Translations under genes and position numbers: made by a program
NCBI GenBank assembly: GCA_045803245.1
Contig: JBJMPK010000122.1
Coordinates: forward strand, 438-64,437
Direction: 5' to 3'
Source of the DNA: Gemmatimonadales bacterium
GTDB lineage: Bacteria; Gemmatimonadota; Gemmatimonadetes; Gemmatimonadales; GWC2-71-9
DNA length: 64,000 bases
In this document: piece by piece, positions 25,039-58,925 of the stretch
How positions within the stretch are numbered: the stretch's first letter is position 1
How the letters are laid out: each line of letters starts with the position of its first letter
The notes under the pieces: generated by a model
Told to the model about the DNA's origin: nothing
Seen by the model: the letters and a program-made list of their open reading frames with translations, nothing else
The model's database searches: none

Positions 25039-30659
<5,621 letters not shown>

Positions 30660-30677
30660 CAGTGATCTCCGGATATT

Positions 30678-30760
30678 AAAAAACCCCGAAGCCAAAACGC
30701 CTCAAGGGGAGCGTTTTAGCGGTTTATTTAACGTGGCCGCAATCAGCGCAAATCGCCACG
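30678..30760 (-). promoter_or_regulatory. structured metH leader: hairpin, possible pseudoknot tail, and terminator/antiterminator (riboswitch-like, class unverified)
   Basis: In RNA sense: P1 hairpin CGUGGC..GCCACG (30732-30760). A GCUAAAACGC tail follows. AAAACGC (30711-30717) can pair with GCGUUUU (30694-30700). The alternative structure is CCCC-GAGGC/GCUUC-GGGG (30684-30709) followed by U6 (30678-30683). Confidence 0.4.
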
Positions 30761-39361: not shown

Positions 39362-39439
39362 GTCAGCGATAGGCACCTCGTTGCCTATCGGTAGGGGTTG
39401 GGGTACGTTGGAGCCTTGAGTCCTTCACCCAAGGCTTTC

Positions 39440-40387
39440 ATGCGGCCCTGCAGTTACCCCGGCCTGGTCCTGGCTCACTTGATTATGGCGGGCTCGGTGG
39501 GCGCGCAGTCGCCTCCTGCCAGCCCGGCGGTGAAGCTGAGCGGTTATCTCCAGGCGCGGGAGGTTTACCAGAGGGACGTCGGGCTTACGAGCTCGATCAA
39601 TCGGGCACGACTGGCCGCCTCCGGCAGCGTTCTCGAGGCGGTCACCTGGCGGATTCAAGGTGAATTCCGCACCGGCTCGGTGGGTACCGGCAAGGCCAGC
39701 GTCTCGCTCCAGGACGCGTACCTGCGTTACGCCCCCAAACTTTGGGCTCTGCAGATCGGGCAGTTCAAGACGCCTTTCGCACTGGAATTCATAACCTCTC
39801 TGGCGGATGTGGAGACCGCCGACCGCTCGACTGTGGTCGATTCGCTCGCGCCCAAGCGGGACATCGGATTGATGGCCGAATACACCCCTGCAAGAGTTCA
39901 CCTCTGGGCAGGGGTGTTTAACGGAGAGGGGCAGAATGTCACCGGGAACCCAGACTCGTCGCTGCTTGGAGCAGGCCGGGTGGCGGTTCGGGTCTTGCCG
40001 GAGCTGTCGCTCGCTATAAACGGTGCGCGGTATTTTGGCGACAGTACCCGATACGGCGGCGATGTCGCGTACGAGCACGGCGCGGTGATCTTGAAGGGTG
40101 AATACATCGGGCAGGCGAGAGATGGGATATCGGCTCCGGATGATTGGGGCTGGTACGGGCTCGGTGCTACCTACCTCACCCCATCCGTGCAGGCGGTAGG
40201 AAAATACGAAGATTTCGGCCGTCCCAGCATCAGCACCGGGTCAAGGAACCGAGCCTGGACCGCGGGCGTCAACGTGTACCCGGGCGGCAAGAACCTGAGA
40301 CTCACTTTCGACTATGTGTCACGCAAGATCGGTGTCCCGGGGACTCGCAAGGGCCGAGTCCTGGCCCAAGTACAAGCACGTTTTTGA
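39440..40387 (+). CDS. phosphate-selective porin O/P-like outer-membrane porin
   Basis: Signal peptide from ATG 39440 (the track's TTG 39398 is the alternative). OprO/P-like pattern (LSGYLQAR, QIGQFKTPFALEF). C-terminal Phe. Confidence 0.75.
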   Translation: MRPCSYPGLVLAHLIMAGSVGAQSPPASPAVKLSGYLQAREVYQRDVGLTSSINRARLAASGSVLEAVTWRIQGEFRTGSVGTGKASVSLQDAYLRYAPKLWALQIGQFKTPFALEFITSLADVETADRSTVVDSLAPKRDIGLMAEYTPARVHLWAGVFNGEGQNVTGNPDSSLLGAGRVAVRVLPELSLAINGARYFGDSTRYGGDVAYEHGAVILKGEYIGQARDGISAPDDWGWYGLGATYLTPSVQAVGKYEDFGRPSISTGSRNRAWTAGVNVYPGGKNLRLTFDYVSRKIGVPGTRKGRVLAQVQARF

Positions 40388-40408
40388 GCGGACACCTGGA
40401 GGAGTGAT

Positions 40409-41356
40409 ATGCGGCGCCTAGTCGCTGGTCTGATCCTGGGGACATCTCTCTTTGGTACTCCGACAGTTTCAGCCCAGACTGATCCCAGCGGTCCGCTCAT
40501 TGTCTTCAATGCGGGAAGCCTGGCGAAGCCGTTCGGCGAGCTATTAAAGGCGTTCAAGGTCAAACATCCTCGAGTCGTCCCGGCACAGGAGAACTCCGGC
40601 AGCCTCGAGGCGGCCCGGAAGCTGACCGACCTGGGAAAGATTCCGGACGTGATCGGGGTGGCAGACTACGGGGTGATCTCACGGCTCCTGATTCCGCAGT
40701 ACGCGAGCTGGTACGCGACGTTCGCCCGGAACGCGATGGTGCTCATCCACACCGACCAGTCTATCGGTGCCAAGGAGATCAACGGCCGAAACTGGTGGCA
40801 AATCCTGATGCGACCGGATGTGCGCGCGGGTCACTCCGATCCGGCCCTCGATCCGAATGGATACCGCACGCTGATGGTGTTCCAACTGGCCGAGAAGTTC
40901 TACCATCAGCCAGGGCTGGCAACTCGGCTGGAGCGGGTGTTTCCGCCGAAATACATCCGGCCCAAGGAAGCCGACCTCACCGCGTTGGTGCAGGCGGGCG
41001 AGCTCGACTACTCCTGGTCGTACGCCTCCATCGCCAAAACAGCCGGCCTGCCGTTCGTGGAGCTGCCGCGCGAGATCGATCTCAGCGATCCCGCACTGGC
41101 CAAATGGTACGCTCAGGCGGTGGTACGGGTTCCGGGCGCGAGTCGATCGGGCAAGGACTCGGTCGAGTTTCGGGGCGAACCGATCGTCTACGCCCTGACC
41201 ATCCCCACAGCCGCTCCTCATCCGGAAACCGCAGCAGCATTTGTTCATTTCGTCTTCTCGGCGGAAGGCCTTTCCATCATTCGGGCCAACGGCCTCACTA
41301 TCCTCGAGCGGCCGCTGCTGGCGGGCCCGGGAAAGCCGCCGGCCGGTTTGTTCTGA
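40409..41356 (+). CDS. WtpA-like tungstate/molybdate-class periplasmic binding protein
   Basis: GGAGGAG upstream, and a signal peptide. Resembles the WtpA family (LIVFNAGSLAKPFGELLKAF, GKIPDVIGVADYGVI, YASWYATFARNAMVLIHTD). Confidence 0.75.
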   Translation: MRRLVAGLILGTSLFGTPTVSAQTDPSGPLIVFNAGSLAKPFGELLKAFKVKHPRVVPAQENSGSLEAARKLTDLGKIPDVIGVADYGVISRLLIPQYASWYATFARNAMVLIHTDQSIGAKEINGRNWWQILMRPDVRAGHSDPALDPNGYRTLMVFQLAEKFYHQPGLATRLERVFPPKYIRPKEADLTALVQAGELDYSWSYASIAKTAGLPFVELPREIDLSDPALAKWYAQAVVRVPGASRSGKDSVEFRGEPIVYALTIPTAAPHPETAAAFVHFVFSAEGLSIIRANGLTILERPLLAGPGKPPAGLF

Positions 41357-43036: not shown

Positions 43037-43858
43037 ATGTTCGGATTGAGAGAATGCGCGACGCTCGCCCTGTGGGGCCTGTTCGTTGGGGCTGGCCCTG
43101 CCGGTCGGGCGCAGTCGCCCGCCCTCCGATACACCTTCGGCCAACTCCACTGCGCTCGATTCCTGGAAACAGCTGAATCTACGATCGAGACGGAAACCGG
43201 CGGCTTGATCCGGGAGCAGACCTCAGGCCGCACGGCGGTGTGGCAGTTCCGGGCCGCTCCCTCAGTAGATGGGATCCGGCTCGAAGGCTGGCTCGACTCT
43301 CTCTCGCTCTGGCGAAAATCGAAGGAGACCACTATTCGCCCCGACACCGACGGCTTGATCGGGGGGCGGTATCGCGGGCTCCTGAGCGGCACGGGTGGGT
43401 ACCAAAGCCAAGCCAGGCCGTTCGTTCCCGATGAGGTGGCTGAAGTGGCGGGCATGGGTACCGCTCTGGATGACTTCTTCCCTCCGTTGCCGGTGGGTCC
43501 CATTCGTCCGGGGCAGGGCTGGAGCGACTCGTCCGGTGTCACCCTCCGGCGAATGGCAGATAGCGGTCTGGCAGGCGTCTCCCTCTACCGATACCGGCTC
43601 GAGGCCCACCGGGTGGCCAGGAGCGCTCCGGTCCGGGGAGATTCGGCTGCGCTTCCGCTCCGGCAGGTGAGCCGGGAGCTGGGCACGTTTGTCTGGCATC
43701 CGTCGTTGGGCCTGCTGCGGCGAGACCGCCGTATAGTGGTGGAGACGACGGTTCCGGCTGGCCGGACGGTGCGGCAGCCGGTGCGCGCCAGGATCGAGCA
43801 ACGGATCACGGTGCTCCGCGATCTCACCGTCCCGCCGCCGGACTCGGGAGGCTGCTAG
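43037..43858 (+). CDS. hypothetical secreted protein
   Basis: Signal-like N-terminus (ATLALWGLFVGAGPAGRAQS). No recognisable domain. Convergent with the ABC permease, with a 4-nt overlap. Confidence 0.5.
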   Translation: MFGLRECATLALWGLFVGAGPAGRAQSPALRYTFGQLHCARFLETAESTIETETGGLIREQTSGRTAVWQFRAAPSVDGIRLEGWLDSLSLWRKSKETTIRPDTDGLIGGRYRGLLSGTGGYQSQARPFVPDEVAEVAGMGTALDDFFPPLPVGPIRPGQGWSDSSGVTLRRMADSGLAGVSLYRYRLEAHRVARSAPVRGDSAALPLRQVSRELGTFVWHPSLGLLRRDRRIVVETTVPAGRTVRQPVRARIEQRITVLRDLTVPPPDSGGC

Positions 43859-44631
43859 GTGGCTGAGGGTTTGCGCCCGATGAAGCGCTGTTCCGGATCG
43901 AAGAGCGCGGCCGCCAGCCCGAATAGGGCCGCCGTTGCCGCCGCAAGGACCAGGATATCGAGTTGGACGGTGAATTCGGCCGGCTGCCCGAAGGCGTGGC
44001 GCATCAGGTCAACCTGATACGTCACCGGATTGATCCGGGCCAGGGATCGAAGCAGGTACGGCATGCCCGCGGTGGGATAGAGGGCCCCGCTCGCAAAGAG
44101 CAGCGGAAAGAGTACCACATTGATGACGCCGGCAAAATTCTCGACCGACCGCAGCCGGGCCGCGATCAAGAGTCCCAGCGTGCCGCTCGAGATGCAGCTG
44201 AGTGCCAGCGCACCGACGGCGGCTGCGAAATTCGGGAGAGATAGGGGGAGCACCAGGGGCGCACAGGCGAGGACGATGCCTCCTTGCAGCACACCGACCA
44301 GCGCCGCGGCCAACGCGCGTCCCAGCAACACTGCCGGCGCACCCGCCGGACTCGCCAGCATCAGCCGCAGCATGCCGAACTCGCGGTCGTAGACGGTCGA
44401 AATAGCCGTCAGCATCGACCCGAACAACGCCGCCATGACCACGATTCCGGGAAACACGAACGCCTGGTAGGAAAGATCTCCACTAATGCGGGCGATGGCA
44501 TTGTAGCCGGTGCCCACCAGCAGCAGCCACATGAACGGCCGCGCCACGCCGCCGAGGAGCCGGCTCGTCTGCCGGGTAGCCCTCGTCAGGTCTCTCGCCA
44601 CGATGCCGTATACCGCCGTCACCCCGCTCAT
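43855..44631 (-). CDS. ABC-2 type transporter permease
   Basis: 258 aa and about six TM segments, typical of ABC-2 (DrrB-like) permeases. ATGA overlap with the ATPase stop. Confidence 0.85.
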   Translation of the reverse strand: MSGVTAVYGIVARDLTRATRQTSRLLGGVARPFMWLLLVGTGYNAIARISGDLSYQAFVFPGIVVMAALFGSMLTAISTVYDREFGMLRLMLASPAGAPAVLLGRALAAALVGVLQGGIVLACAPLVLPLSLPNFAAAVGALALSCISSGTLGLLIAARLRSVENFAGVINVVLFPLLFASGALYPTAGMPYLLRSLARINPVTYQVDLMRHAFGQPAEFTVQLDILVLAAATAALFGLAAALFDPEQRFIGRKPSAT

Positions 44632-45554
44632 GCGGTCGGGATCTGCGTCTTGGCGAAGTAGACATCCTCGAGGGTGGGCCGACGAAGGGTGAAGCGCTCG
44701 ATTCCCGGGGCGGTACCCGCCAGCTCGACCACAGCATCGCGAGCACTACTCAGTCCCACCCGGTAGCCCCGCTCCGTCCGCACGCGAGTCCTGGCGACCC
44801 CCAGTCCGGCGAGTGCCTTGACCAGGCGCTCGGCGCCCGAGCCCTCGATCTCAGCCACCTCGACACCGATCGCGTTCTGCAGCTCGGATGGCGCGTCGTT
44901 CGCCACGACCTTTCCGCTCGACAGGAGCACAACGCGGTCGGCCGGCTCTGCTTCGGTGAGATAGTGGGTCGAGAAGAAAATGGTGGTCCCGTGCTCCCTC
45001 CGCCGGGTCTCCAGCAACGACCAAACCCGCTCCCGATGCTCGGGATCGAGTCCTACGGTCGGCTCATCGAGAATGAGAAGATCGGGCTGGTGGAGCAGGG
45101 CGCGGACGATGTCCAGAACCCGGCGCCATCCGCCTGAGAGCTGGCGTGCGGGAGTCCGGGCCCGGGGGCCGAGGCCCGACCAACCGAGCGCTCCGGCAAC
45201 AGCGGTTCTCGCGGTACTGCCTCCGAGCCCCATCAGACGGGCAGCAAAAAAAAGGTTCTCCGTTACCGTCAGAAGGCCGTCGATGGTGCTGTCCTGGAAC
45301 ACGAGCCCGAGTCTTTGCCGGACGGCCCGGCGCTGGCGGGTTACATCGTTGCCGAAGATGCGGGCCGATCCCCTGGTCGGGGCGAGGAGGGTAGCGAGCA
45401 GCAGCATAGTGGTGGTTTTGCCGGCCCCATTGGGACCCAGCAGGCCGACCATCGACCCGGGAGAGATCCGGAGATCGAGCGCGTCCAGGGCCCGGGTATC
45501 TCCGTAGTCACGTCCCAGCCGCTCGGCTTCGATGACGGGCGGCGTTCCGCTCAC
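44628..45554 (-). CDS. ABC transporter ATP-binding protein (DrrA-like)
   Basis: Walker A GPNGAGKTT, signature LSGGWRR, Walker B LLILDEPT. The GTG at 45554 forms a GTGA overlap with the pqqE stop. Confidence 0.9.
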   Translation of the reverse strand: MSGTPPVIEAERLGRDYGDTRALDALDLRISPGSMVGLLGPNGAGKTTTMLLLATLLAPTRGSARIFGNDVTRQRRAVRQRLGLVFQDSTIDGLLTVTENLFFAARLMGLGGSTARTAVAGALGWSGLGPRARTPARQLSGGWRRVLDIVRALLHQPDLLILDEPTVGLDPEHRERVWSLLETRRREHGTTIFFSTHYLTEAEPADRVVLLSSGKVVANDAPSELQNAIGVEVAEIEGSGAERLVKALAGLGVARTRVRTERGYRVGLSSARDAVVELAGTAPGIERFTLRRPTLEDVYFAKTQIPTA

Positions 45555-46645
45555 ACCGGAGCGGGCTCGCCTGCGATATGGCGGTACTGGTATTCGTGCA
45601 TGGGCCGGGACGGCTCCTGCAGCGCTTCATCGATGATTGCACGCAAGGGCGTGAGGGTGCAGACCGGGTCGGTATTGGTGGCGTCGCCGGTGAGCGCGAA
45701 AGCCTGGCACCTGCAGCCGCCGAAATCGACCGTCTTACGGGGACACGATCGACACGGCTCCTTCATCCAACCATCCCCCCGGAAGGCCCGGAAGGCCTCT
45801 GATTCCCGCCAGATCCATTCCAGTGAATGCTCTCGCACGTTGTCGAACCGCAGTGTCGTAATCTGGGTGGCGCCATGACAAGGGAGCACTGCGCCGTTGG
45901 GAGCGATAACCAGATAGAGCTTGCCCCATCCGCCATAACAGGCCTTGGGGTACGGCTCGTAGTAGTCTGGCAGGACGTAGGTGATCTGCATCCGTCCACG
46001 GTAGCGCTGAATGGCGCGCTCGGCGATTTCGCGCGACCGCTCGACCTGTTCCCGGGTGGGCTGGAGGCTGGCCCGGTTCTGGAGTCCCCACCCGTAGTAC
46101 TGGGTATTTGCCAGCTCGATGCGGTCGGCGCCCAGATCGGCTGCCATATCGATGATTTCACCGATCCGGTCCAGGTTCGCCCGGTGGAGCACGACATTGA
46201 TCGTGAACGCGAAGCCCAGCTCCCGTACCAGCGCCGCTGCCGCCTGTTTGTGCTTGACGGAGCGCAGCCCCGCGATGCGCTCCGCGATCTCGGGATCGGA
46301 GTCCTGAATCGAGATCTGAATGTGCTCCAGCCCCGCTTCCTTGAGGCGCTCGGCGCGGGGACGGGTCAGGCCGAGCCCCGACGTCACGAGGGTGGAGTAG
46401 AGACCCTGCCCGCGGGCGTGGGCCGCCAACTCCTCGAGGTCCTTGCGGAGCAGCGGCTCGCCACCTGAGAGACCCAGTTGCAGCACGCCGAGCTCCCGCG
46501 CCTGAGAGAATGCCCGTTTCCAGTCGTCGGTGGACAGCTCGGCCTCTGCCCGGATCAGCTCGAGCGGATTGGAGCAGTACGGGCAGTGAAGCGGACAGCG
46601 GTGTGTCAGCTCGGCCAGCAGTGTGGTCGGAATTTCAGTTGGCAC
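45551..46645 (-). CDS. pqqE: PQQ biosynthesis radical-SAM protein PqqE
   Basis: CPLHCPYCSNP radical-SAM cluster motif and a SPASM-type C-terminal Cys cluster. Overall PqqE pattern. Confidence 0.95.
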   Translation of the reverse strand: MPTEIPTTLLAELTHRCPLHCPYCSNPLELIRAEAELSTDDWKRAFSQARELGVLQLGLSGGEPLLRKDLEELAAHARGQGLYSTLVTSGLGLTRPRAERLKEAGLEHIQISIQDSDPEIAERIAGLRSVKHKQAAAALVRELGFAFTINVVLHRANLDRIGEIIDMAADLGADRIELANTQYYGWGLQNRASLQPTREQVERSREIAERAIQRYRGRMQITYVLPDYYEPYPKACYGGWGKLYLVIAPNGAVLPCHGATQITTLRFDNVREHSLEWIWRESEAFRAFRGDGWMKEPCRSCPRKTVDFGGCRCQAFALTGDATNTDPVCTLTPLRAIIDEALQEPSRPMHEYQYRHIAGEPAPV

Positions 46646-46925
46646 GGACCAGCTCGCGATCTGCCATTCGGCTCAGGTACTCGGTGACGTCGGTGCTGAC
46701 ATCCGCCTGGTAGCGATCGGTCAGGATGGTGACGATCTGCCCCACCGTGTGAGTTCCATTACAAAGCTCCAGGATGGCGGCTCCCGTCTCATTCAAGAGC
46801 ACCGCGCCCTCGGGATATAGAAGGACAGGCCGTTGCCTCACGGTATCGTAGTCGAGGCGAGCCAGGCGCCAGAGCCGGGGAACCGAGTCGGGAGTCAGGA
46901 GTCGGGGGTCGGCAGCCACGGTCAC
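46635..46925 (-). CDS. pqqD: PQQ biosynthesis peptide chaperone PqqD
   Basis: C-terminal 96 aa of ORF 46635..47495 (LLYPEGAVLLNETGAAILELCNGTHTVGQIV). The GTG at 46925 forms a GTGA overlap with the pqqC stop. Confidence 0.85.
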   Translation of the reverse strand: MTVAADPRLLTPDSVPRLWRLARLDYDTVRQRPVLLYPEGAVLLNETGAAILELCNGTHTVGQIVTILTDRYQADVSTDVTEYLSRMADRELVRAN

Positions 46926-47683
46926 GATTCCCGGTAGGCGTTGTGAATCGTATCGATCATCACCCACAACATCTCGAGCTTGAACGCCAGTGCGTCGAAG
47001 GCGCGGCGTTGGGTCTCCACCGTGGTGCAATGCTGCTGCACCAAACGCAGGCCCTGCCGGCTGTCGCGCGGCGCCTGGATCAGCCGGGACTTGAAATAGT
47101 CGAGAGCCTCGGGCCTGATCCACGAATAATGCGCTGGAAAGGCGGCGATCCGCTTGCGCATGAGGTCGGGCGCGAAGAGCTCGGTGAGGGACGACGCCAC
47201 CGCTTCGATCCAGGGCCTGGTTTTGCAGAAGGTCACGTAGGCTTCTGCCGCAAACCGGACTCCGGGAAGCACGTGCCGCTCGTCCTCCATCTCCTCCCGG
47301 GGCACGCCGAGTGCTTCGCCCAGACGGATCCACAATTCGATGCCGCCGGGCGCGCCGTCTGCGTTTCCGGTGCCGTCGTGATCGATGATCCGCTGGATCC
47401 ACTCCCGCCGCACCTCCGGATCGGGACAGTTCGAGATGATGGCGGCGTCCTTGCGCGGGATTGCCCGCTGATAGGCCAACCGGTTCGCCACCCACCCCTG
47501 GAGCTGTCTGGGGCTCAGCCGTCCCTCGTGCATAAGCTGATGAAAAGGATGGTTGGCATAATACGAGGTGCTGAACGAGCGCAGGCCCTCGGCCAGCGCT
47601 TCCGGCCCCAGGGGCCGGTCGAGGACGGGGATCGGCGGCGGGGGCGGAGCGGCGAGCCCGGAAGCGAACAGTGTGGTAGTCAT
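46922..47683 (-). CDS. pqqC: pyrroloquinoline-quinone synthase PqqC
   Basis: ORF trimmed to the ATG at 47683 (MTTTLF). PqqC pattern (YYANHPFHQLMHEGRLSPRQLQGWVANR). Confidence 0.95.
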   Translation of the reverse strand: MTTTLFASGLAAPPPPPIPVLDRPLGPEALAEGLRSFSTSYYANHPFHQLMHEGRLSPRQLQGWVANRLAYQRAIPRKDAAIISNCPDPEVRREWIQRIIDHDGTGNADGAPGGIELWIRLGEALGVPREEMEDERHVLPGVRFAAEAYVTFCKTRPWIEAVASSLTELFAPDLMRKRIAAFPAHYSWIRPEALDYFKSRLIQAPRDSRQGLRLVQQHCTTVETQRRAFDALAFKLEMLWVMIDTIHNAYRES

Positions 47684-47684
47684 C

Positions 47685-48593
47685 TCAAACCATGAAAGAC
47701 ATGCCGTCGGCGCCGACCTGGAGTCCGGCCCGCTCGACCCTGGCACGCTCGGGCGAGTCTTCGAGCAGCATCGGATTGGTGTTGTTGATGTGGGTGTACA
47801 CTTTGCGTGGACGGCGCAGACGGGCCAGCTGGAGAAGACTTCCGCCGGCACCCGACACCGGCAGGTGATCCATATCCCGCGCGCTACGATCGCTGATCCC
47901 AAGCACGCGCAGCTCGTTGTCGCTCCAGAACGTGCCATCGAAGAGCAGCAGATCGCTCTCTCCCAAACGCTCGAGCAGGGAGGGGTCCAAATCGCCGCAG
48001 CCGGGAACGAACGCGCAAGATCCGCCGCTGGTCTCGTCGGACAGCATGAGGCCCGCGGTGTGGCCGACCTCAGCCTCAGGCGCAAAGCGCGGCGGGCCGG
48101 CGGGCACCCGGAAAGGCTGGACCGAGATGCCGCTCGGCTCACCGCCTTGGTATCGGAGCTGAATCCGTTCTTCCAACGGCATCTCGGTCACGGTGACCGC
48201 GGCGAACGCGCGGGTAACCGGAAGCAGCCGCGAGTCGTGCTCCAGGATGGATTGCACGGCTGGCGTGGAGTACAACTGAAGCTGCCGCGCCTCCCGGAGC
48301 AGGACAATTCCCAGAGTGTGATCCAGCTCGGCATCGGTGGTGACCACGCCCTCGACCGGCACGTGGCGGCATCCGGCCGGCATGATTCCGGGAAGGCAGG
48401 CGATCTGGCTGCGAATGTCGGGAGAGGCGTTCAGCAGGAACCAGCGAAGCCCATCGGCACTGACCGCGGCGGTGGATTGGCTACGGGAATGCGCCCGGCG
48501 CGGATCGGATCGCCCGGCGCGGCACGTGGGGCACCAACAGTTCCACTGCGGGAAGCCCCCTCCAGCCGCAGTACCGAGTAGCACGACGCGCAT
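47685..48593 (-). CDS. pqqB: PQQ biosynthesis protein PqqB (metallo-beta-lactamase fold)
   Basis: MRVVLLGTAAGGGFPQWNCWCPTC N-terminus and overall PqqB pattern. Confidence 0.95.
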   Translation of the reverse strand: MRVVLLGTAAGGGFPQWNCWCPTCRAGRSDPRRAHSRSQSTAAVSADGLRWFLLNASPDIRSQIACLPGIMPAGCRHVPVEGVVTTDAELDHTLGIVLLREARQLQLYSTPAVQSILEHDSRLLPVTRAFAAVTVTEMPLEERIQLRYQGGEPSGISVQPFRVPAGPPRFAPEAEVGHTAGLMLSDETSGGSCAFVPGCGDLDPSLLERLGESDLLLFDGTFWSDNELRVLGISDRSARDMDHLPVSGAGGSLLQLARLRRPRKVYTHINNTNPMLLEDSPERARVERAGLQVGADGMSFMV

Positions 48594-48605
48594 GTTGAAT
48601 AGCCG

Positions 48606-48629
48606 AAGGGCCCGCTTTCACGGGCCCTT
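48606..48629 (-). promoter_or_regulatory. stem-loop between pqqA and pqqB
   Basis: aagggcccg / cgggccctt form a 9-bp perfect stem with a 6-nt loop, located 14 nt after the pqqA stop. Only a weak U run follows. Confidence 0.55.
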
Positions 48630-48643
48630 GAACTCAGCTCCAG

Positions 48644-48718
48644 TTAGAGCGTCGCGACGTAGGCAGTGACTTCCATCGTGACGGCCACGACTTCAGCTTC
48701 GGGCTTGGTCCAGGACAT
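48644..48718 (-). CDS. pqqA: PQQ precursor peptide PqqA (24 aa, below ORF-track cutoff)
   Basis: Translated by hand: MSWTKPEAEVVAVTMEVTAYVATL. It has the conserved E-x3-Y cross-link pair (EVTAY) and the WxKP N-terminus. GGAG lies 8 nt upstream, and the ORF sits directly upstream of pqqB. Confidence 0.9.
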   Translation of the reverse strand: MSWTKPEAEVVAVTMEVTAYVATL

Positions 48719-48812
48719 GATGTACGCTCCAGTTCAGTGTAAGATCTGCGAGTGCTCCTGGGTCATTTAACCCAGCCGGGCCGTCGCGTCGACCCGATGA
48801 CACCGCTCGTAA

Positions 48813-48828
48813 AGCATCCGACGTGCCA
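48813..48828 (-). promoter_or_regulatory. sigma-54 (-24/-12) promoter upstream of pqqA
   Basis: The minus strand reads TGGCACGTCGGATGCT, against the consensus TGGCACG-N4-TTGCW. GG and GC have the correct 10-nt spacing. The element lies ~95 nt upstream of the pqqA ATG. An AT-rich IHF-like stretch (TTCAAATGTTTG) lies ~35 nt further upstream. Confidence 0.6.
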
Positions 48829-48955: not shown

Positions 48956-50374
48956 TCACCCACTCTGGATTCCGAACTTCTTCAACCGGTAGCGCAGGGT
49001 GTCACGGGTAATGCCCAGGCGCTGTGCGGCCTTGGTCTGATTTCCGCCGGCTTCTCTCATGGCGCGCTCGATCAGCGTGCGCTCCCACAGGGTAAGGTCT
49101 CCGTCCCGAGGCAGCTCGGGTGCGGCAGGCCCCTCGGTGGTCCGCACAGCATTCGTGGGCATAGATGTCTCATCGCGGCCATCCGCCTCCGGGCGCACCG
49201 GGGTGGCGAGCGAAAGGTGCTCGACCTTGAGCGTCGAATCGCGGCTCCAAAGCACCGCCCGCTCGATGACGTGGCTCAGCTCCCTGACGTTGCCGGGCCA
49301 GGGATATGCCAGCAGCACCTCGCGGGCAGGTCCATCGATCCGCCGGACGTCTTTGCCATACTTGGCGCTGAAGCGCCGGAGATAGTGGTCGGCCAGGAGA
49401 AGTGCATCCTCTCCTCGTTCCCGCAGCGGCGGCAAGTGAAGCAGGATGACGGCCAGCCGAAAGTACAGGTCGTTGCGGAAGCGACCCTGTTGAACCTCGC
49501 GATCCAGGTCGCGGTTCGTGGCAGCTAGAATTCGCACGTCGATCTTCCGATCCCGGATCCCCCCTACCCGGCGGACAGTCCGCTCCTCGATCGCCCGGAG
49601 CAGCTTCCCCTGAAGCGACTGCTCCAGGTCTCCCACCTCGTCCAGGAACAGAAATCCGGCTTCCGCGGCTTCGAATAAGCCGAGCTTCGACTCCTTAGCA
49701 TCGGTGAACGCGCCTCGCTCGTATCCGAACAGCTCCGCTTCCATGAGATTGGCCGGCAACGCGGTGCAGTTCACGTCGATAAACGGTTTATCCGCGCGCC
49801 GGCCGGAGCCGTGGAGCGTGCGGGCGACCAATCCCTTTCCGGTACCAGTCTCACCAGTGATGAGGACCGGCGGCATTTCGTCCAGGGCGGCCACCTGGCG
49901 AACCTGTTCCATGACGGCGCGCAGTGCCGGTGAGCTGCCCAGTATCCCCGCGAACGGTATCTCACTGGCGGCCTTCCGGCGGTAGTAGGAGAGCTCCTGC
50001 TTCATGAGTGCGGTCTGGCGGGCCCGGTCCGCCAATAGCTTGAGCTCCTCCAAATCGACCGGCTTCTTCATGTAGTCGAACGCGCCGAGCTTGACCGCCT
50101 CGACCGCGCCCTCGATGGTCCCGTAGGCGGTCATGATGATCACCGGAATGGCGGCATCGAACTCCCGAATGCGCCGCAGGAGGTCGATACCGCTCATGCC
50201 GGGCAGGCGCACGTCGGCGAACACCACGTCGGGCCGGAGCCGGGGAAGCATCTCGATCGCTTGCTCCGCGTCAGCGGCGACCTCGGCCTCGTATCCGGCT
50301 TCACTCAGGAAGGCCTTGACCGCACGAGCCAGGGTACGCTCGTCATCGACGATGAGAACCGTGGATCCGCTCAT
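48956..50374 (-). CDS. sigma-54-dependent response regulator (NtrC family)
   Basis: Receiver domain (VLIVDDE, DVVFADVRLPGMSG). AAA+ sigma-54 activator domain (GETGTGKG, ERGAFTDA, i.e. the GAFTGA loop). Fis-type HTH (AAQRLGITRDTLRYRLKKFGI). Confidence 0.9.
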   Translation of the reverse strand: MSGSTVLIVDDERTLARAVKAFLSEAGYEAEVAADAEQAIEMLPRLRPDVVFADVRLPGMSGIDLLRRIREFDAAIPVIIMTAYGTIEGAVEAVKLGAFDYMKKPVDLEELKLLADRARQTALMKQELSYYRRKAASEIPFAGILGSSPALRAVMEQVRQVAALDEMPPVLITGETGTGKGLVARTLHGSGRRADKPFIDVNCTALPANLMEAELFGYERGAFTDAKESKLGLFEAAEAGFLFLDEVGDLEQSLQGKLLRAIEERTVRRVGGIRDRKIDVRILAATNRDLDREVQQGRFRNDLYFRLAVILLHLPPLRERGEDALLLADHYLRRFSAKYGKDVRRIDGPAREVLLAYPWPGNVRELSHVIERAVLWSRDSTLKVEHLSLATPVRPEADGRDETSMPTNAVRTTEGPAAPELPRDGDLTLWERTLIERAMREAGGNQTKAAQRLGITRDTLRYRLKKFGIQSG

Positions 50375-51840
50375 ATCGGGACGGCTGCCTCGGACCGCGC
50401 GGCCCGCAGCCGCAATCGAACGGTGGTTCCTCCCGGCCGGCTCACGATCTCGAGCCGTCCGCCGTTTTGCTCCACGTAGCGCTTGGCGATGGCGAGTCCC
50501 AGGCCGGTGCCCTCCTGCCTGGTGGTGAAGAACGGCTCACACACCGACGGGAGCACCTGCTCAGGAATGCCGGGACCGGTATCGGCGATCTCGATGACCA
50601 CCTGGGTAGAACCATCGGCATCTCCATCGCGCGAAGCAGCGATACGAAGCCGCCCTCCATCCGGCATGGCGTCGAGCGCGTTGGAGACTACCTCGACCAG
50701 CGCTTGTTCCAGCTGCATCGGGTCAACCCGCACGTCCGGAAGGCCGGGGGAGAGATCGAGCTGGAGCTCCACCCGCCGGTCCCGAATCAGCTGCGAAAAG
50801 GCGGGCAGCAGGCTCTCGACCAGACGCGGGACGCTCTCCTGGAGTGGGTGGAACGGGGCGGGACGGGAGAAGCTCAGCAGGTGACTGATCCGGCGGTCCA
50901 GACGATCGACCTCTTCGATAATGGCATCGAGATGCTCGGATGAGGATGGAGACTCAGGGTGACGGCGGACCAGTTGAGCCGCCGCTCGAAGGCTCGCCAG
51001 CGGGTTTCGGAGTCCGTGGGCCACCGCGGCCGCCATCTCGCCGATGGAGGCCAGCTTTTCCGATTGCACCAGTTGGGCTCGGGATTGGCGGAGATTCTCG
51101 GTCATCCGGCCGAACGCGCCCGCGAGCTCGCCGATCTCATCTTTGGATTGCGGGGTAATGGGGTGATCCAGCTGGCCGGCGCCCACCACCGCCATGGCGC
51201 CGGTGAGCTGGTTGAGCGGGCGGGCCAGACTGCGTGAGATCAGCCAGGAGCCGATGAGACCGCCGGCGAGTGACAGTATCAGAATGGCGAGCAGCACCCG
51301 TTCCTGGGAGGCGAGAATCTCCTCCAACCGGGCGTACGCGCCCCGGACGCTCGACTCCCGGGCCCGCCGGTAAATCTCCCGATTCATCTGCGTCAGCGCC
51401 GGCAGCAGGCGGCCTTTGAGCTCCCGCTGGGCGGCCGAATAGGCCTGCTGATGGTGGCCGGTGTCGAAGAGACGAAAGACGCTATCCGCGGCCGCCTGGA
51501 TCTGCTGCTGAATGCCACGCACGCCGTCGGCGAGACCCATCTCCTCGGGGCGAAGCTCCGCCGTCCACCGTCGCTGCCAGTAGTCGACCACCTCGCCGTT
51601 TAGCCGAAATTCCTTCTTTGCGGTGGGATCCATCCCGGTGAGATAGCGCCAGATGACCTCACTCTGATCGAACATCGCCGTTTCCAGCTCGGCGTAGGTC
51701 CGAGTCCGCGCCATACTCTGTCCCAGCGCCTGCAGCGCCCGGCGCTCGAGCAGGTTACTCCGGATCGCCTCCGCCCCAATCAGGAGCGCGGGGAGGACCA
51801 TGAGCGAAAAGCCAAGCAGCAGTTTGCGTTGGAAGGTCAC
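50371..51840 (-). CDS. sensor histidine kinase (periplasmic helical sensor, HAMP, HisKA, HATPase)
   Basis: Two TM segments flank a ~150-aa sensor region, followed by a HAMP domain. H-box AHGLRNPL. G-boxes DTGPGIP and GTGLGLAIA. 4-nt overlap with the regulator gene. Confidence 0.9.
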   Translation of the reverse strand: MTFQRKLLLGFSLMVLPALLIGAEAIRSNLLERRALQALGQSMARTRTYAELETAMFDQSEVIWRYLTGMDPTAKKEFRLNGEVVDYWQRRWTAELRPEEMGLADGVRGIQQQIQAAADSVFRLFDTGHHQQAYSAAQRELKGRLLPALTQMNREIYRRARESSVRGAYARLEEILASQERVLLAILILSLAGGLIGSWLISRSLARPLNQLTGAMAVVGAGQLDHPITPQSKDEIGELAGAFGRMTENLRQSRAQLVQSEKLASIGEMAAAVAHGLRNPLASLRAAAQLVRRHPESPSSSEHLDAIIEEVDRLDRRISHLLSFSRPAPFHPLQESVPRLVESLLPAFSQLIRDRRVELQLDLSPGLPDVRVDPMQLEQALVEVVSNALDAMPDGGRLRIAASRDGDADGSTQVVIEIADTGPGIPEQVLPSVCEPFFTTRQEGTGLGLAIAKRYVEQNGGRLEIVSRPGGTTVRLRLRAARSEAAVPI

Positions 51841-51907: not shown

Positions 51908-51945
51908 CACGGATGACCACGGATGGGAACGGATGAGCACGGATT
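51908..51945 (+). repeat. four tandem 10-bp-periodic repeats, core CACGGATG
   Basis: cacggatg at 51908, cacggatg at 51918, aacggatg at 51928 and cacggatt at 51938, with exactly 10-bp spacing. The repeats overlap the 5' end of the GxxExxY ORF. Confidence 0.85.
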
Positions 51946-52372
51946 AAAACACAGCGCCATAACTTCCCAGGTGATCAGGGCCTTTTTTCAGGTCTACAAT
52001 GAACTGGGCGCTGGATTTCTCGAATCGGTATACGTCGAGGCGCTCGATCTGGCACTGTCTGAAGCGGGACTTTCAACTCAGCGGGAGGTACCGCTGGCGG
52101 TCACTTTCCGAGGTCATGTCGTCGGGAGATTCAGGGCGGATCTCGTGGTCGAAAGAAACGTTTTAGTGGAAGCCAAGGCCTGCCCCAGGCTGCATCCGAG
52201 CCATGAAGCACAGGTTTTGAACTATCTGCGTGCCACGGTTCTCGAGGGTTGGCCTGGCTCTGAACTTTGGGCCGCGGCCTCAGTTCAAACGCCTTCTATT
52301 CGACAACGTATTAAAAAAACACCCTCCAAAGCCTTCGCTTTGGACGTGCTCGGGGGGCTAGCGTTGGACTAG
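51923..52372 (+). CDS. GxxExxY protein (PD-(D/E)XK nuclease-like), apparently frameshifted near the 3' end
   Basis: GFLESVY motif and family-typical core (FRADLVVERNVLVEAKA, HEAQVLNYLRAT). After LE at 52244-52246 the family-typical C-terminus (VGLALNFGPRPQFKRLLFDN) continues in the +1 frame to the TAG at 52359-52361. One extra G in the run at 52246-52248 would explain this. Confidence 0.7.
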   Translation: MGTDEHGLKHSAITSQVIRAFFQVYNELGAGFLESVYVEALDLALSEAGLSTQREVPLAVTFRGHVVGRFRADLVVERNVLVEAKACPRLHPSHEAQVLNYLRATVLEGWPGSELWAAASVQTPSIRQRIKKTPSKAFALDVLGGLALD

Positions 52373-56184: not shown

Positions 56185-56290
56185 GTGAGCGGTGAGCGGG
56201 GGGCCCGGTTAAATTTCGGACTCCCCGCTTGTTTTCCGAGTACAGGGATTGAACTGCGATGACCGTTTCCAGCGCCCGCTCACCGCTCAC
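56185..56290. repeat. 16-bp perfect inverted repeat bracketing the M16 start codon
   Basis: gtgagcggtgagcggg (56185-56200) is the reverse complement of cccgctcaccgctcac (56275-56290). Both arms are themselves tandem heptamers (GTGAGCG x2). Confidence 0.8.
56194..56235 (+). terminator. putative intrinsic terminator after the TPR gene
   Basis: gagcgggggg / ctccccgctt form a stem with G-U pairs and a 17-nt loop, followed by tgtttt. The left arm overlaps the left arm of the 16-bp inverted repeat. Confidence 0.5.
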
Positions 56291-58925
56291 CTCACACCTC
56301 TCACCTGTCTGGACGGCGGGCGTCCGCCGCGAAGTTCTCCCCAACGGCCTCACTCTACTGGTTCAGCCGGACCATTCCGCGCCGGTCGTGGCGGTGGTCA
56401 CCCACGTGAAGGCGGGGTTCTTCGATGAACCCGACCGGTGGACCGGTATTTCGCACGTGCTGGAGCACATGTTCTTCACGGGACCGGCTCGACGCGGGGT
56501 GGGTCAGATTGCCCGGGAAACCAAAGCCGCGGGGGGGTATCTCAACGCCGGTACCGGGTACGATCACACCAGCTATTTCAGCGTGCTTCCATCGTCGGGA
56601 CTCGAAACGGCCCTGGATATCCAGGCCGATGCGCTGCGCCATTCGGTTATCGATGCCGATGAGCTGCGCCGAGAGCTCCAGGTCATCGTTCAGGAGGCCA
56701 AACGGAAGCTGGATACGGCCAGTGCCGTGGCCCACGAGACCCTGCACCAGGTCATGTTCGACCGGCATCGGATCAGGCGCTGGCGCATTGGACGGGAGGA
56801 CCAGTTGGCCCGGCTGACTCGCGACGATGTCTGGTCCTATTATCGCTCACGGTATGTCCCGGAGCGCACCATTGTGGCGATCGCGGGGGATATCGACCCA
56901 GACCGCGGGTTGGAGCTGGGCCGGGCGGCCTACGTCGGGTGGACTGCCGCACCTGGCGCAGTGGATCCGTCACCGGACGAGCCTCCCCATCGGGAAGTCC
57001 GGGCCCGGACCCTCCGGGGCGACGTCAGCCAGGCTGAGCTGGTCCTGGGCTGGCGTACGGTACCGCCCCTTCACCAGGACGCACCCGCCCTGGATCTCGC
57101 TGCCGCGGTGCTAGGATCAGGCCGGGGGAGCTGGCTCTACCGGGCGCTGCGCGAGCGGGGGATCGTGACGTCGATCTCCGCCCATAATTACACGCCGACG
57201 GAGCTGGGAGTCTTCAGCATCGGGGCCGACCTCGCCCCGGAGAGGCTGCCGCTCGCGCTCGAAGCCATCGCGGAGTCCGTCGCCCGGCTCACCCTCTTGG
57301 GGCCAGACGCCGGGGAGCTCGAGCGAGCGCGGACGCTGCTCCAATCGCGCTGGGCTCGCCGGCTCGAACCGATGGAAGGAAAGGCTGCCGCTCTGGCCTC
57401 GGCGGAGGCTCTGGAGCACGTGTCGTTCTTAGATCGTGAGTACGAGGCCCTGGGGCGGGTCGAGCCGGATGAGCTACGCGCCGCGGCAGCCCGGTACCTC
57501 CACCCGGACGACATTTCCGCCGTGGTTTACCTGCCAGATAATGCCGGCCCCCAACTGGATGCCCAGCTGCTGGAGCAGAGCTTCGCGGTTTCGGCGCTGC
57601 GGAAACCGTCCTCGGTTTCGCCCGCCCGTATCGATGTGCCACGGCCGGTCCGTCTGGCCGGCCGCAGCGAAGCGGAGGTGTTCCACACCGCCCTTCCCGG
57701 AGTGGACCTTCTGGTTCGACAGAAGCCTGGCGTTCCTCTGGCCACCCTGGGGATGTACGTACCGCGGCCGGAGTTCGATCCCCCGGAATCGGCCGGTCTC
57801 GGTGCCCTGGTGGTTCGAAGCTCTGTGCGTGGGGCTGGGGCTTTCGACACCGGAGAGCTGGCATTTGCGTTCGAGCACCTCGGTGGCACGCTGGCTGCCA
57901 GCGTTGCCTCGGACTGGTTGGGCTTCGGCACCACGGTGCTCTCCGAGCATCTGGGCGAGGCCGGGGTTCTCATCGACACCGTATTCAGCACACCGCGGCT
58001 GGTCGAGGCCGACGTCCTCACCGAGCGAGAGCTCATGATTCGGGAGGCCGAGCAGGTTGCCGATGACATGTTTCGTTACCCGTTTCAGTTGGGCTTCTCG
58101 GCGGCATTCGGCAATGCCGGATACGGTCTACCCGCAAGCGGCCTTCCCGACACACTGGCCAACATCGGTGCGGCGGAGGTGCGGAACTGGCACGAGCGCG
58201 CTCTGCTCGGGGTCCGACCGGTCGTGGTTGCGGTGGGAGACATCGAGCCGGAGTCGGCCGCGGCCACCCTGGCCGGTATCTTTCAAAAGCGGAGTCACGC
58301 GCCTGACCACCGAACGCTGTCGGACCTTCCCTGGGCTGTGACCAGGTCCGAGGGCTCCACCAATGTGGTCACCCGGGAAAAGGCCCAGGCGGCGCTCGCG
58401 ATGATCTTTCCCGGTCCCCAGCGGCGTGATCCCGACCGATTCGCGGCCGAAGTCTGGGCTGCGGTTGCGAGCGGGCTCGGTGGAAGGATGTTCGAGGCGC
58501 TGCGGGACCGGCGGTCTCTCGCCTATACCGTGCTTGCGTCGAGTTGGCAGCGGGGCCGAGCCGGGGCATTGGTGACGTACATCGCGACGTCGCCCGACCG
58601 CGAGGCCGAGGCCCGGGCCGCCATGCTGCAGGAGCTGGAGCGGTTCACACGCGAGCCGGTCAGTGCCTCCGAGCTGGGGCAAGCCATCAGCTACCTGGCG
58701 GGCCAGGCGGAAGTCGGGCGGCAGAGTGGAAGCGCGCTGGCGGGCGAGATCCTCGAGGCATGGCTCATCGGCAACGGTCTCGAGGATCTGGAAAATCCGG
58801 GTGCGGCATTCCGAAGGGTCACGGCGGACCAGGTCCTGCGGATCGCCAGTCGGTATCTCGAGCCGTCCCAGCGGGCGGAAGGGGTGGTGCGGGGTACCGG
58901 GCTCAGCTCGCCAATCGCCGGTTGA
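56259..58925 (+). CDS. fused double M16 (pitrilysin-family) zinc peptidase
   Basis: HxxEH zinc motif (GISHVLEHMFF) in the first module. The second half repeats the M16 fold without the motif. 888 aa in total. Confidence 0.85.
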   Translation: MTVSSARSPLTSHLSPVWTAGVRREVLPNGLTLLVQPDHSAPVVAVVTHVKAGFFDEPDRWTGISHVLEHMFFTGPARRGVGQIARETKAAGGYLNAGTGYDHTSYFSVLPSSGLETALDIQADALRHSVIDADELRRELQVIVQEAKRKLDTASAVAHETLHQVMFDRHRIRRWRIGREDQLARLTRDDVWSYYRSRYVPERTIVAIAGDIDPDRGLELGRAAYVGWTAAPGAVDPSPDEPPHREVRARTLRGDVSQAELVLGWRTVPPLHQDAPALDLAAAVLGSGRGSWLYRALRERGIVTSISAHNYTPTELGVFSIGADLAPERLPLALEAIAESVARLTLLGPDAGELERARTLLQSRWARRLEPMEGKAAALASAEALEHVSFLDREYEALGRVEPDELRAAAARYLHPDDISAVVYLPDNAGPQLDAQLLEQSFAVSALRKPSSVSPARIDVPRPVRLAGRSEAEVFHTALPGVDLLVRQKPGVPLATLGMYVPRPEFDPPESAGLGALVVRSSVRGAGAFDTGELAFAFEHLGGTLAASVASDWLGFGTTVLSEHLGEAGVLIDTVFSTPRLVEADVLTERELMIREAEQVADDMFRYPFQLGFSAAFGNAGYGLPASGLPDTLANIGAAEVRNWHERALLGVRPVVVAVGDIEPESAAATLAGIFQKRSHAPDHRTLSDLPWAVTRSEGSTNVVTREKAQAALAMIFPGPQRRDPDRFAAEVWAAVASGLGGRMFEALRDRRSLAYTVLASSWQRGRAGALVTYIATSPDREAEARAAMLQELERFTREPVSASELGQAISYLAGQAEVGRQSGSALAGEILEAWLIGNGLEDLENPGAAFRRVTADQVLRIASRYLEPSQRAEGVVRGTGLSSPIAG

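Follow-up and report, generated by a model that had tools for sequence, protein, structure and literature searches.

The operon for biosynthesis of pyrroloquinoline quinone (PQQ) in a soil Gemmatimonadales metagenome-assembled genome (MAG) continues beyond pqqE into two further genes, which encode an ATP-binding cassette (ABC) ATPase and an ABC-2 permease. The operon is located in a 64,000-nucleotide stretch of contig JBJMPK010000122.1, referred to here as the window, and runs on the minus strand from 48718 down to 43855 in the order pqqA-pqqB-pqqC-pqqD-pqqE-ABC ATPase-ABC-2 permease. The gene overlaps and their conservation among relatives indicate that the pair truly belongs to the pqq operon and is translationally coupled to it. 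With a probability of roughly 0.5, we consider the pair to be an accessory, binding-protein-independent ABC-2 exporter that is co-translated with PqqE and moves PQQ, or a product of its pathway, out of the cytoplasm. PqqB was once proposed as the transporter that takes PQQ out of the cytoplasm, an early idea that was later dropped. The elements of the operon are the following.

48644..48718, minus strand: pqqA, 24-residue precursor peptide with E-x3-Y (TIGR02107, 21.1 bits against a cut-off of 20; PF08042, 22.2 against 21.1)
48606..48629, minus strand: GC-rich 10-bp stem-loop in the gap between pqqA and pqqB, AAGGGCCCG-TGAAAG-CGGGCCCTT, read from the sequence
47685..48593, minus strand: pqqB (TIGR02108, 341.9 bits against a cut-off of 245)
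46922..47683, minus strand: pqqC (TIGR02111, 298.5 bits against a cut-off of 240)
46635..46925, minus strand: pqqD (TIGR03859, 73.1 bits against a cut-off of 46)
45551..46645, minus strand: pqqE, radical SAM/SPASM enzyme (TIGR02109, 535 bits against a cut-off of 381)
44628..45554, minus strand: ABC ATPase, 308 residues, DrrA/ABCA-like nucleotide-binding domain (NBD) with a C-terminal extension (ABC_tran PF00005, 108 bits)
43855..44631, minus strand: ABC-2 permease, 258 residues, predicted type V exporter fold (PF01061 ABC2_membrane, 111 bits against a cut-off of 26.9)

The coordinates of the open reading frames (ORFs) and the junctions between them were taken straight from the window sequence, and families were assigned by NCBIfam curated cut-offs and Pfam. 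All five of the proteins PqqA to PqqE score above the curated equivalog cut-offs. The first-pass annotation of this DNA had described seven consecutive minus-strand genes with near-zero spacing; the coordinates are as it gave them, and each junction reads as it described. The TGA of pqqB is followed by a single G and then by the ATG of pqqC at 47683, which leaves a 1-nt gap. The pqqC and pqqD genes share a GTGA overlap at 46925-46922, and pqqD has an alternative in-frame GTG start at 46919. With its GTG at 46645, pqqE overlaps pqqD, whose stop codon is at 46637-46635, by 11 nt, and this overlap is kept in most relatives. The pqqE and ATPase genes overlap as GTGA (45554-45551), and the ATPase and permease genes as ATGA (44631-44628). 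A consensus scan inside the operon detected neither promoter-like sites nor, on the coding strand, terminator-like sites, and this includes the junction of pqqE and the ATPase gene, for which the annotation had raised a separate promoter or terminator.

The pqqA gene encodes MSWTKPEAEVVAVTMEVTAYVATL, which reads ...TMEVTAYVATL and contains the Glu-x3-Tyr pair, the residues of PqqA that are converted into PQQ. A near-identical PqqA peptide is found in 34 of 34 related regulator-pqqA spacers. The hairpin reported between pqqA and pqqB corresponds to the 10-bp GC stem-loop at 48629-48606. It is present in the minimum-free-energy fold, lacks a U-tract, and did not count as a terminator in the scan; it would probably set a high ratio of precursor peptide to enzymes.

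Conservation of the linkage between pqqE and the pair was inspected in a genome scan that covered one genome per GTDB species, with an alignment of four permease sequences as the query. The genome loci described here are the best 80 of at least 588 stretches encoding a permease relative, and were annotated by tblastn with the window proteins. Two of the four query permeases proved to be pqq-fused, so that recovery of those clades is partly by construction, but their pqq linkage was not known when the query was built. Among the loci listed, at least 22 species-level genomes have pqqBCDE, the ATPase gene, and the permease gene in one contiguous run. All 14 genome loci listed with permease identities of 59-82% have this arrangement as far as the contig extends. 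They are labelled Gemmatimonadales or Gemmatimonadaceae, apart from one labelled 'Acidobacteriota'. The pair is likewise fused to pqq in L001 and L162, whose permeases are also 59-82% identical. Eight of the next 13 genome loci listed are pqq-fused at a permease identity of 36-43%, namely the Actinomycetota L016, L018, and L019 (the last of the Solirubrobacterales), four other Gemmatimonadota (L017, L020, L022, and L027), and one MAG labelled 'Proteobacteria' (L025). These loci support a coupling that is conserved over large distances, with permeases of 36-43% identity and at least two phylum labels.

The junction itself is also conserved. When genome and metagenome loci are pooled, pqqE and the ATPase gene share a 4-nt overlap in 51 of 62 loci (GTGA in 46, ATGA in 5), in agreement with the earlier claim, made from the overlaps in the window, that the pair is probably co-translated with the biosynthetic enzymes. 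An apparent in-frame fusion of PqqE and the ATPase in L002 is an artefact of a local frame change, as the GTGA junction is present. The identities of PqqE, ATPase, and permease to their window counterparts co-vary across 41 loci (r = 0.91-0.95), consistent with the three genes being inherited together. In an unbiased HMMER search of 1.84 billion representatives, the pump formed a tight family, and the next full-length relatives were about 40-45% identical. The best-scoring full-length representatives belong to pqq-fused lineages. Actinomycetota often have a tandem-fused permease, with a length of about 567 residues.

In several lineages the ABC pair sits between pqqE and a peptidase gene of the same operon. 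The pair is followed by an M19 peptidase gene in L018, L019, and L164 (a Conexibacter MAG), by an M17 leucyl aminopeptidase gene in L165, and in L025 by a gene for a 906-residue M16 peptidase that matches PqqF weakly. Such a position between pqqE and peptidase genes suggests that the pump is embedded among pathway genes and not merely appended to them. A gene for a PQQ-dependent dehydrogenase adjoins the cluster in L018, L019, L025, and L165, and is found nearby in L014 as well. None was detected in the window, as the annotation had noted, either by tblastn with three quinoproteins as queries or by Pfam scans of its large ORFs.

The pqq operons of the Actinomycetota type have a tandem-fused or single permease and then an M19 or M17 peptidase (L018:9980-12936, L019, L164:6889-10701, L165:7075-10480). 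These M19 and M17 peptidases are candidates for PqqA trimming in organisms without PqqF/G. The window encodes an 888-residue M16 peptidase at 56259-58925 (plus strand), which matches PqqF weakly (81 bits, cut-off 320) and may fill the PqqF/G role. Homologues of this gene are located about 1-2 kb upstream of the sensor kinase gene that precedes the pqq genes, on the opposite strand, in L003, L006, L009, and L015.

We then characterized the pair by sequence family, motifs, and fold. Pfam matches to ABC_tran and ABC2_membrane bear out the earlier identification of the last two genes as ATPase and ABC-2 permease. The term 'DrrAB-like', which had been applied to the pair, is apt in that DrrA and DrrB are the top-scoring NCBIfam families, with 240.2 bits for the ATPase (cut-off 312.45) and 158.3 bits for the permease (cut-off 223.05). 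Both scores are nevertheless below the cut-offs, and the other nearest family is PedBC/LutEF, as the second-best matches are TIGR03864 PQQ_ABC_ATP for the ATPase (213.9 bits, cut-off 302.25) and TIGR03861 PedC for the permease (146.3 bits, cut-off 241.35). With both proteins under the curated cut-offs in each case, membership in DrrAB and membership in PedBC were rejected. The Walker A motif (GPNGAGKTT), the signature motif (LSGGWRR), the Walker B motif (LILDEP), and the H-loop histidine can all be read from the ATPase sequence, and by these motifs the NBD appears to be catalytically intact. Its nearest solved structures are ABCA4, ABCA7, and ABCA1. An NCBI protein labelled Gemmatimonadales matches the permease with 100% identity. 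The AlphaFold model of the permease has a pLDDT of 77 and a pTM of 0.78. Its fold matches are KpsM, ABCG5/8, ABCG25, NosY, TarG, Wzm, and CcmB, all of which are exporters or extractors, and the TM-scores against KpsM, ABCG, Wzm, TarG, and NosY are 0.55-0.70. The matches include cofactor-related systems for periplasmic enzymes (NosFY, CcmB) and an exporter of a small carboxylate (ABCG25). The modelled fold supports an exporter architecture for the pair.

PedBC/LutEF (TIGR03864/TIGR03861) is the nearest non-fused relative in reference genomes, with permease identities of 33-37% and, among the loci listed, an occurrence mostly in Proteobacteria. Like the window pair, it consists of an ABC-2 ATPase and a permease, and it is associated in genomes with PQQ biosynthesis genes and PQQ-dependent dehydrogenases. 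The fusion of an ABC-2 pair to pqqE appears to be new here, while the association of the PedBC family with PQQ biosynthesis is already known and recorded as such in the TIGRFAM descriptions. Different from PedBC/LutEF, which is found in a dehydrogenase cluster, the window pair is translationally fused to pqqE, and its ATPase has 308 residues with a C-terminal extension instead of the approximately 245 residues of the PedBC type. The window pair also lacks PedA1 and PedA2 and falls far under both cut-offs; six true PedC-family members score 374-463 bits, compared with 146.3 for the window permease. In a comparison sample of 54 PedC-type loci, about 40 have PedA1 (TIGR03863) and PedA2 (TIGR03866) immediately upstream of the ATPase gene, usually near a PQQ alcohol dehydrogenase gene. 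No homologue of the PedA1 binding protein or the PedA2 propeller was found in the window or within 10 kb of 23 pqq-fused loci (22 genome loci and L001). By these comparisons, the window pair is a relative of the PedBC/LutEF system with a different architecture. True PedC loci are located within 10 kb of pqq genes in L031, L046, L053, L061, L063, L071, and L074. True PedBC-type clusters stand beside pqqBCDE at L031:9262-15546, where an M17 aminopeptidase gene lies between, at L074:9300-13794, and at L046:9-10774.

The resemblance to DrrAB (TIGR01188, TIGR01247) goes beyond its top score, as DrrAB is free of a binding protein, has an ATPase of similar length with a C-terminal domain, and is encoded with the biosynthetic genes of the molecule that it exports, a feature that the window pair would share. 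The differences are that the window proteins score below the cut-offs, that the context is a peptide-derived cofactor and not a polyketide, and that the ATPase gene overlaps a radical SAM gene. CcmAB, which acts with haem in cytochrome c maturation, and NosFY, which serves the CuZ centre of NosZ, have in common with the window pair the permease fold (NosY, E of about 7e-4 to 1e-3; CcmB, E of 1.8e-3) and the concept of an ABC-2 machine supplying a cofactor to an extracytoplasmic enzyme. This analogy is functional only, because sequence-family membership is not detectable (the Pfam CcmB match of the window permease is weak, at 21.7 bits, and below the cut-off) and the extra subunits CcmCDE, NosD, and NosL are missing here.

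In the searchable full-text literature, which did not cover one survey of pqq genes, an ABC-2 pair fused to pqqE is not described. An assigned inner-membrane PQQ exporter was not found in the searchable literature either, in line with the earlier statement that none was known, and the sole candidate is META1p2359 of Methylorubrum extorquens AM1, an ABC transporter suggested to export PQQ to the periplasm (PMC7391723). Like the window pair, META1p2359 does without a binding protein and has been proposed as a PQQ exporter. As compared by description only, it differs in being a fused ATPase-membrane polypeptide that is unlinked to pqq genes. The genetics of the same Methylorubrum study flagged a leucyl aminopeptidase alongside the ABC exporter as candidates for missing PQQ functions (PMC7391723), which is a parallel to the operons here that combine a pump with a peptidase.

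The proposed export function would operate as follows. The overlapping stop and start codons would couple translation, so that the ATPase and the permease are made along with PqqE. The two proteins would assemble as an ABC-2 (type V) exporter with two NBDs and two transmembrane domains (TMDs), (NBD)2(TMD)2, without a binding protein. This pump would carry a product of the pathway outward; the likeliest substrate is PQQ, a 330-Da tricarboxylate that is unable to cross the membrane unaided, and extracytoplasmic quinoproteins would then be loaded with PQQ beyond the membrane. The pump would be an accessory module, and sublineages without it presumably use another route, as Proteobacteria must. 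More tentatively, and at somewhat less than even odds, the pair may define a first family of inner-membrane exporters dedicated to PQQ. Its presence in the pqq operons of Gemmatimonadales and several Actinomycetota would then be ancestral, and the pump would perhaps take PQQ from PqqC and hand it on to extracytoplasmic quinoproteins. Product release from PqqC is slow. An operon-embedded pump in two phyla would be a concrete and clonable candidate for PQQ export, with relevance to the engineering of PQQ overproduction and secretion, and natural, near-isogenic operons lacking the pump provide a ready comparison. Owing to the exporter-type fold in common, the pair also bears on how PedBC and LutEF, read as 'lanthanide importers', are to be understood.

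Several observations weigh against this proposal, and one of them is the lack of the pump in close relatives. Scanning metagenomes with PqqE yielded 66 close relatives whose downstream sequence extended for 200 nt or more. The ATPase gene directly follows pqqE in 38 of them and is absent in 28. Hence, the linkage is not unique to this genome, as it is found in at least 22 genomes, but it is not universal either, since the 28 loci have the next conserved neighbour after pqqE and no pump. These pump-less loci, with PqqE identities of 82-87%, keep the kinase, the regulator, pqqA to pqqE, the convergent gene for a 273-residue protein, the gene for P5C dehydrogenase, and the WtpA-like gene, while precisely the two ABC genes are missing. 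A permease unlinked to pqq was seen in none of the 14 close hits among the reference-genome loci listed, which makes relocation unlikely and favours true loss. With 28 of 66 loci lacking it, the pump cannot be an obligatory step, and export by it is not required for PQQ use in close relatives. In a neighbour-joining tree of PqqE, the loci without a pump fall into at least two or three clusters inside the pump-bearing diversity, and every basal and outgroup lineage has the pump. The simplest reading is that the pump is ancestral in this Gemmatimonadales group but dispensable, with repeated clean losses in some sublineages.

The remaining points concern phylogeny, occurrence, and what has been assigned to relatives. 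On the earlier question of whether pqq-linked pairs form one clade, neighbour-joining bootstrap gives 100% for the window clade and 100% for the PedC clade, but the joining of pqq-fused clades is unsupported, as are the deeper nodes in general, and a single origin of the pqq-fused pairs is for this reason not claimed. No cultured carrier of a pqq-fused pump was identified among the loci. The pqq operons of the well-studied PQQ producers (Klebsiella, Pseudomonas, Methylobacterium) are not known to have such genes. We infer both the substrate and the direction of transport. The first-pass annotation had called the pair a plausible exporter of PQQ, a late intermediate, or the PqqA remnant; conserved operon membership and the exporter fold speak for this, whereas the dispensability of the pump and the inferred substrate hold it back. 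PedBC/LutEF has been implicated in lanthanide uptake and not in PQQ export (PMC6839425, PMC7391723), and Ca-dependent PedE function and growth are independent of PedA1A2BC (PMC6839425).

This last relationship leads to another explanation, in which the pair is a PedBC/LutEF-like transporter for the metals used in quinoprotein biogenesis. Its cargo would be a lanthanide, calcium, or a metallophore, and it would be expressed along with the pqq genes since both cofactors are required at once. TIGR03864 and TIGR03861 are not only the second-best families for the window pair but also the best ones for other pqq-fused permeases, and the PedC-family loci that are the nearest non-fused relatives include several within 10 kb of pqq. 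Lanthanide-dependent growth requires PedA1A2BC and LutAEF, which have been assigned to lanthanide uptake into the cytoplasm (PMC6839425, PMC7391723, PMC12997753), and Gemmatimonadetes have lanthanide-type XoxF3 systems (PMC10875860). We consider a metal role unlikely in view of scores well below the cut-offs (146 against 241 and 214 against 302), the lack of PedA1 and PedA2 at every pqq-fused locus compared with their presence at most of the sampled true PedC loci, and a first extracytoplasmic loop about 9 residues shorter than that of PedC. Moreover, the WtpA-like gene, the sole one nearby for a binding protein, is encoded on the opposite strand and persists where the pump is absent. An improbable role of a different kind is that the pump exports or clears PqqA remnants, a reactive intermediate, or excess PQQ, the last as self-protection against redox cycling, like the immunity and export pumps of radical SAM/SPASM peptide clusters. 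The operon logic does resemble that of clusters for peptide products, as pumps beside radical SAM/SPASM maturases are common in sactipeptide and ranthipeptide clusters. The top-scoring family, DrrAB, is a self-resistance pump, and the fact that sister lineages can dispense with the pump is easier to reconcile with protection or housekeeping than with an essential step. However, genes for M16, M17, and M19 peptidases accompany the pump, so that remnants are more likely to be degraded than exported. PqqC has no signal peptide, which would place the last step in the cytoplasm and leave the intermediate without a periplasmic fate. Self-protective export of PQQ, for its part, would operationally be PQQ export.

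The pair could also be a general efflux pump that the operon captured by chance, without any PQQ-specific role, or, as a variant, the inner-membrane partner of the TolC-like and EmrA-like gene products encoded upstream. Its losses are indeed clean and repeated. No gene for an inner-membrane partner lies alongside the outer-membrane gene (54996-53584) or the adaptor gene (53606-52416), and ABC-2 pumps can use HlyD-type adaptors, as in YbhGFSR. Nevertheless, a hitch-hiker would not be expected to hold the 4-nt overlap with pqqE across permeases of 36-43% identity, to sit between pqqE and pathway peptidases, or to co-vary with PqqE at r > 0.9, and the adaptor and outer-membrane genes do not track the pump, given that L134 has the adaptor and no pump. 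We regard capture of this kind as very unlikely, and retain export of PQQ or a pathway product as the preferred function of the pair.

Upstream of pqqA, the window contains a two-component pair and candidate regulatory elements, as listed below.

50371..51840, minus strand: sensor histidine kinase (HAMP, HisKA, HATPase_c; Pfam and NCBIfam), leading member of the two-component gene pair that precedes pqqA
48956..50374, minus strand: NtrC/AtoC-type sigma-54-dependent response regulator (Response_reg, Sigma54_activat, HTH_8; best NCBIfam match AtoC, 460 bits, below the cut-off)
48814..48828, minus strand: candidate sigma-54 promoter, -24/-12 element TGGCACGTCGGATGC (GG-N10-GC), read from the sequence
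48757..48800, minus strand: conserved two-hairpin 5' leader between promoter and pqqA (RNAalifold on 25 leaders; 14 pairs predicted, 7 with compensatory changes)

The kinase gene is syntenic upstream of pqq in L001-L011, L015, L017, L020, L022, and L027, and a gene for an NtrC-type regulator is directly upstream of pqqA in the relatives as well. A GGCA(C/T)-N5-NTGC block is aligned in all 34 of the related regulator-pqqA spacers. Together, these elements suggest that PQQ synthesis in this group is sigma-54-dependent. A single sigma-54 transcript would run from pqqA to the permease gene and be turned on at the -24/-12 element by the adjacent NtrC-type two-component pair. The two-hairpin leader could be a regulatory or stabilizing RNA element; an Rfam search of the operon and leader returned no family, with just one sub-threshold chance hit.

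The genes around the operon were inspected as possible partners of the pump. Downstream, the window contains at 39398-41356 (plus strand) genes for a phosphate-type porin and a WtpA-like oxyanion-binding protein, with no gene for a cognate permease or ATPase nearby. The WtpA-like protein (40409-41356) was rejected as a partner, being on the other strand, about 2.5 kb away, of the oxyanion class, and kept in all pump-less loci examined. The convergent gene at 43037-43858 (plus strand) overlaps the permease stop codon by 4 nt and encodes a 273-residue protein whose N-terminus resembles a signal peptide and which matches no family. This secreted neighbour is also conserved in pump-less loci and was rejected as a pump-specific partner.

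On the upstream side, the TolC-like outer-membrane gene (54996-53584) and the EmrA-like adaptor gene (53606-52416), both on the minus strand, have no inner-membrane pump gene beside them. The two genes vary among relatives, and a TetR gene precedes them in L162:1-2683. A tripartite pump formed with them was rejected, because most pump loci lack them and the pump-less L134 has the adaptor. Between the adaptor and kinase genes lies an ORF of 149 residues (51923-52372, plus strand) with a GFLESVY motif of the GxxExxY type. It looks like a small insertion, as the same spacer is just 60-140 nt in L001 and L162. Further away, at 25039-30695 (minus strand), the gene for a full-length cobalamin-dependent methionine synthase of 1260 residues adjoins one for a 635-residue domain fusion of homocysteine S-methyltransferase and MTHFR.

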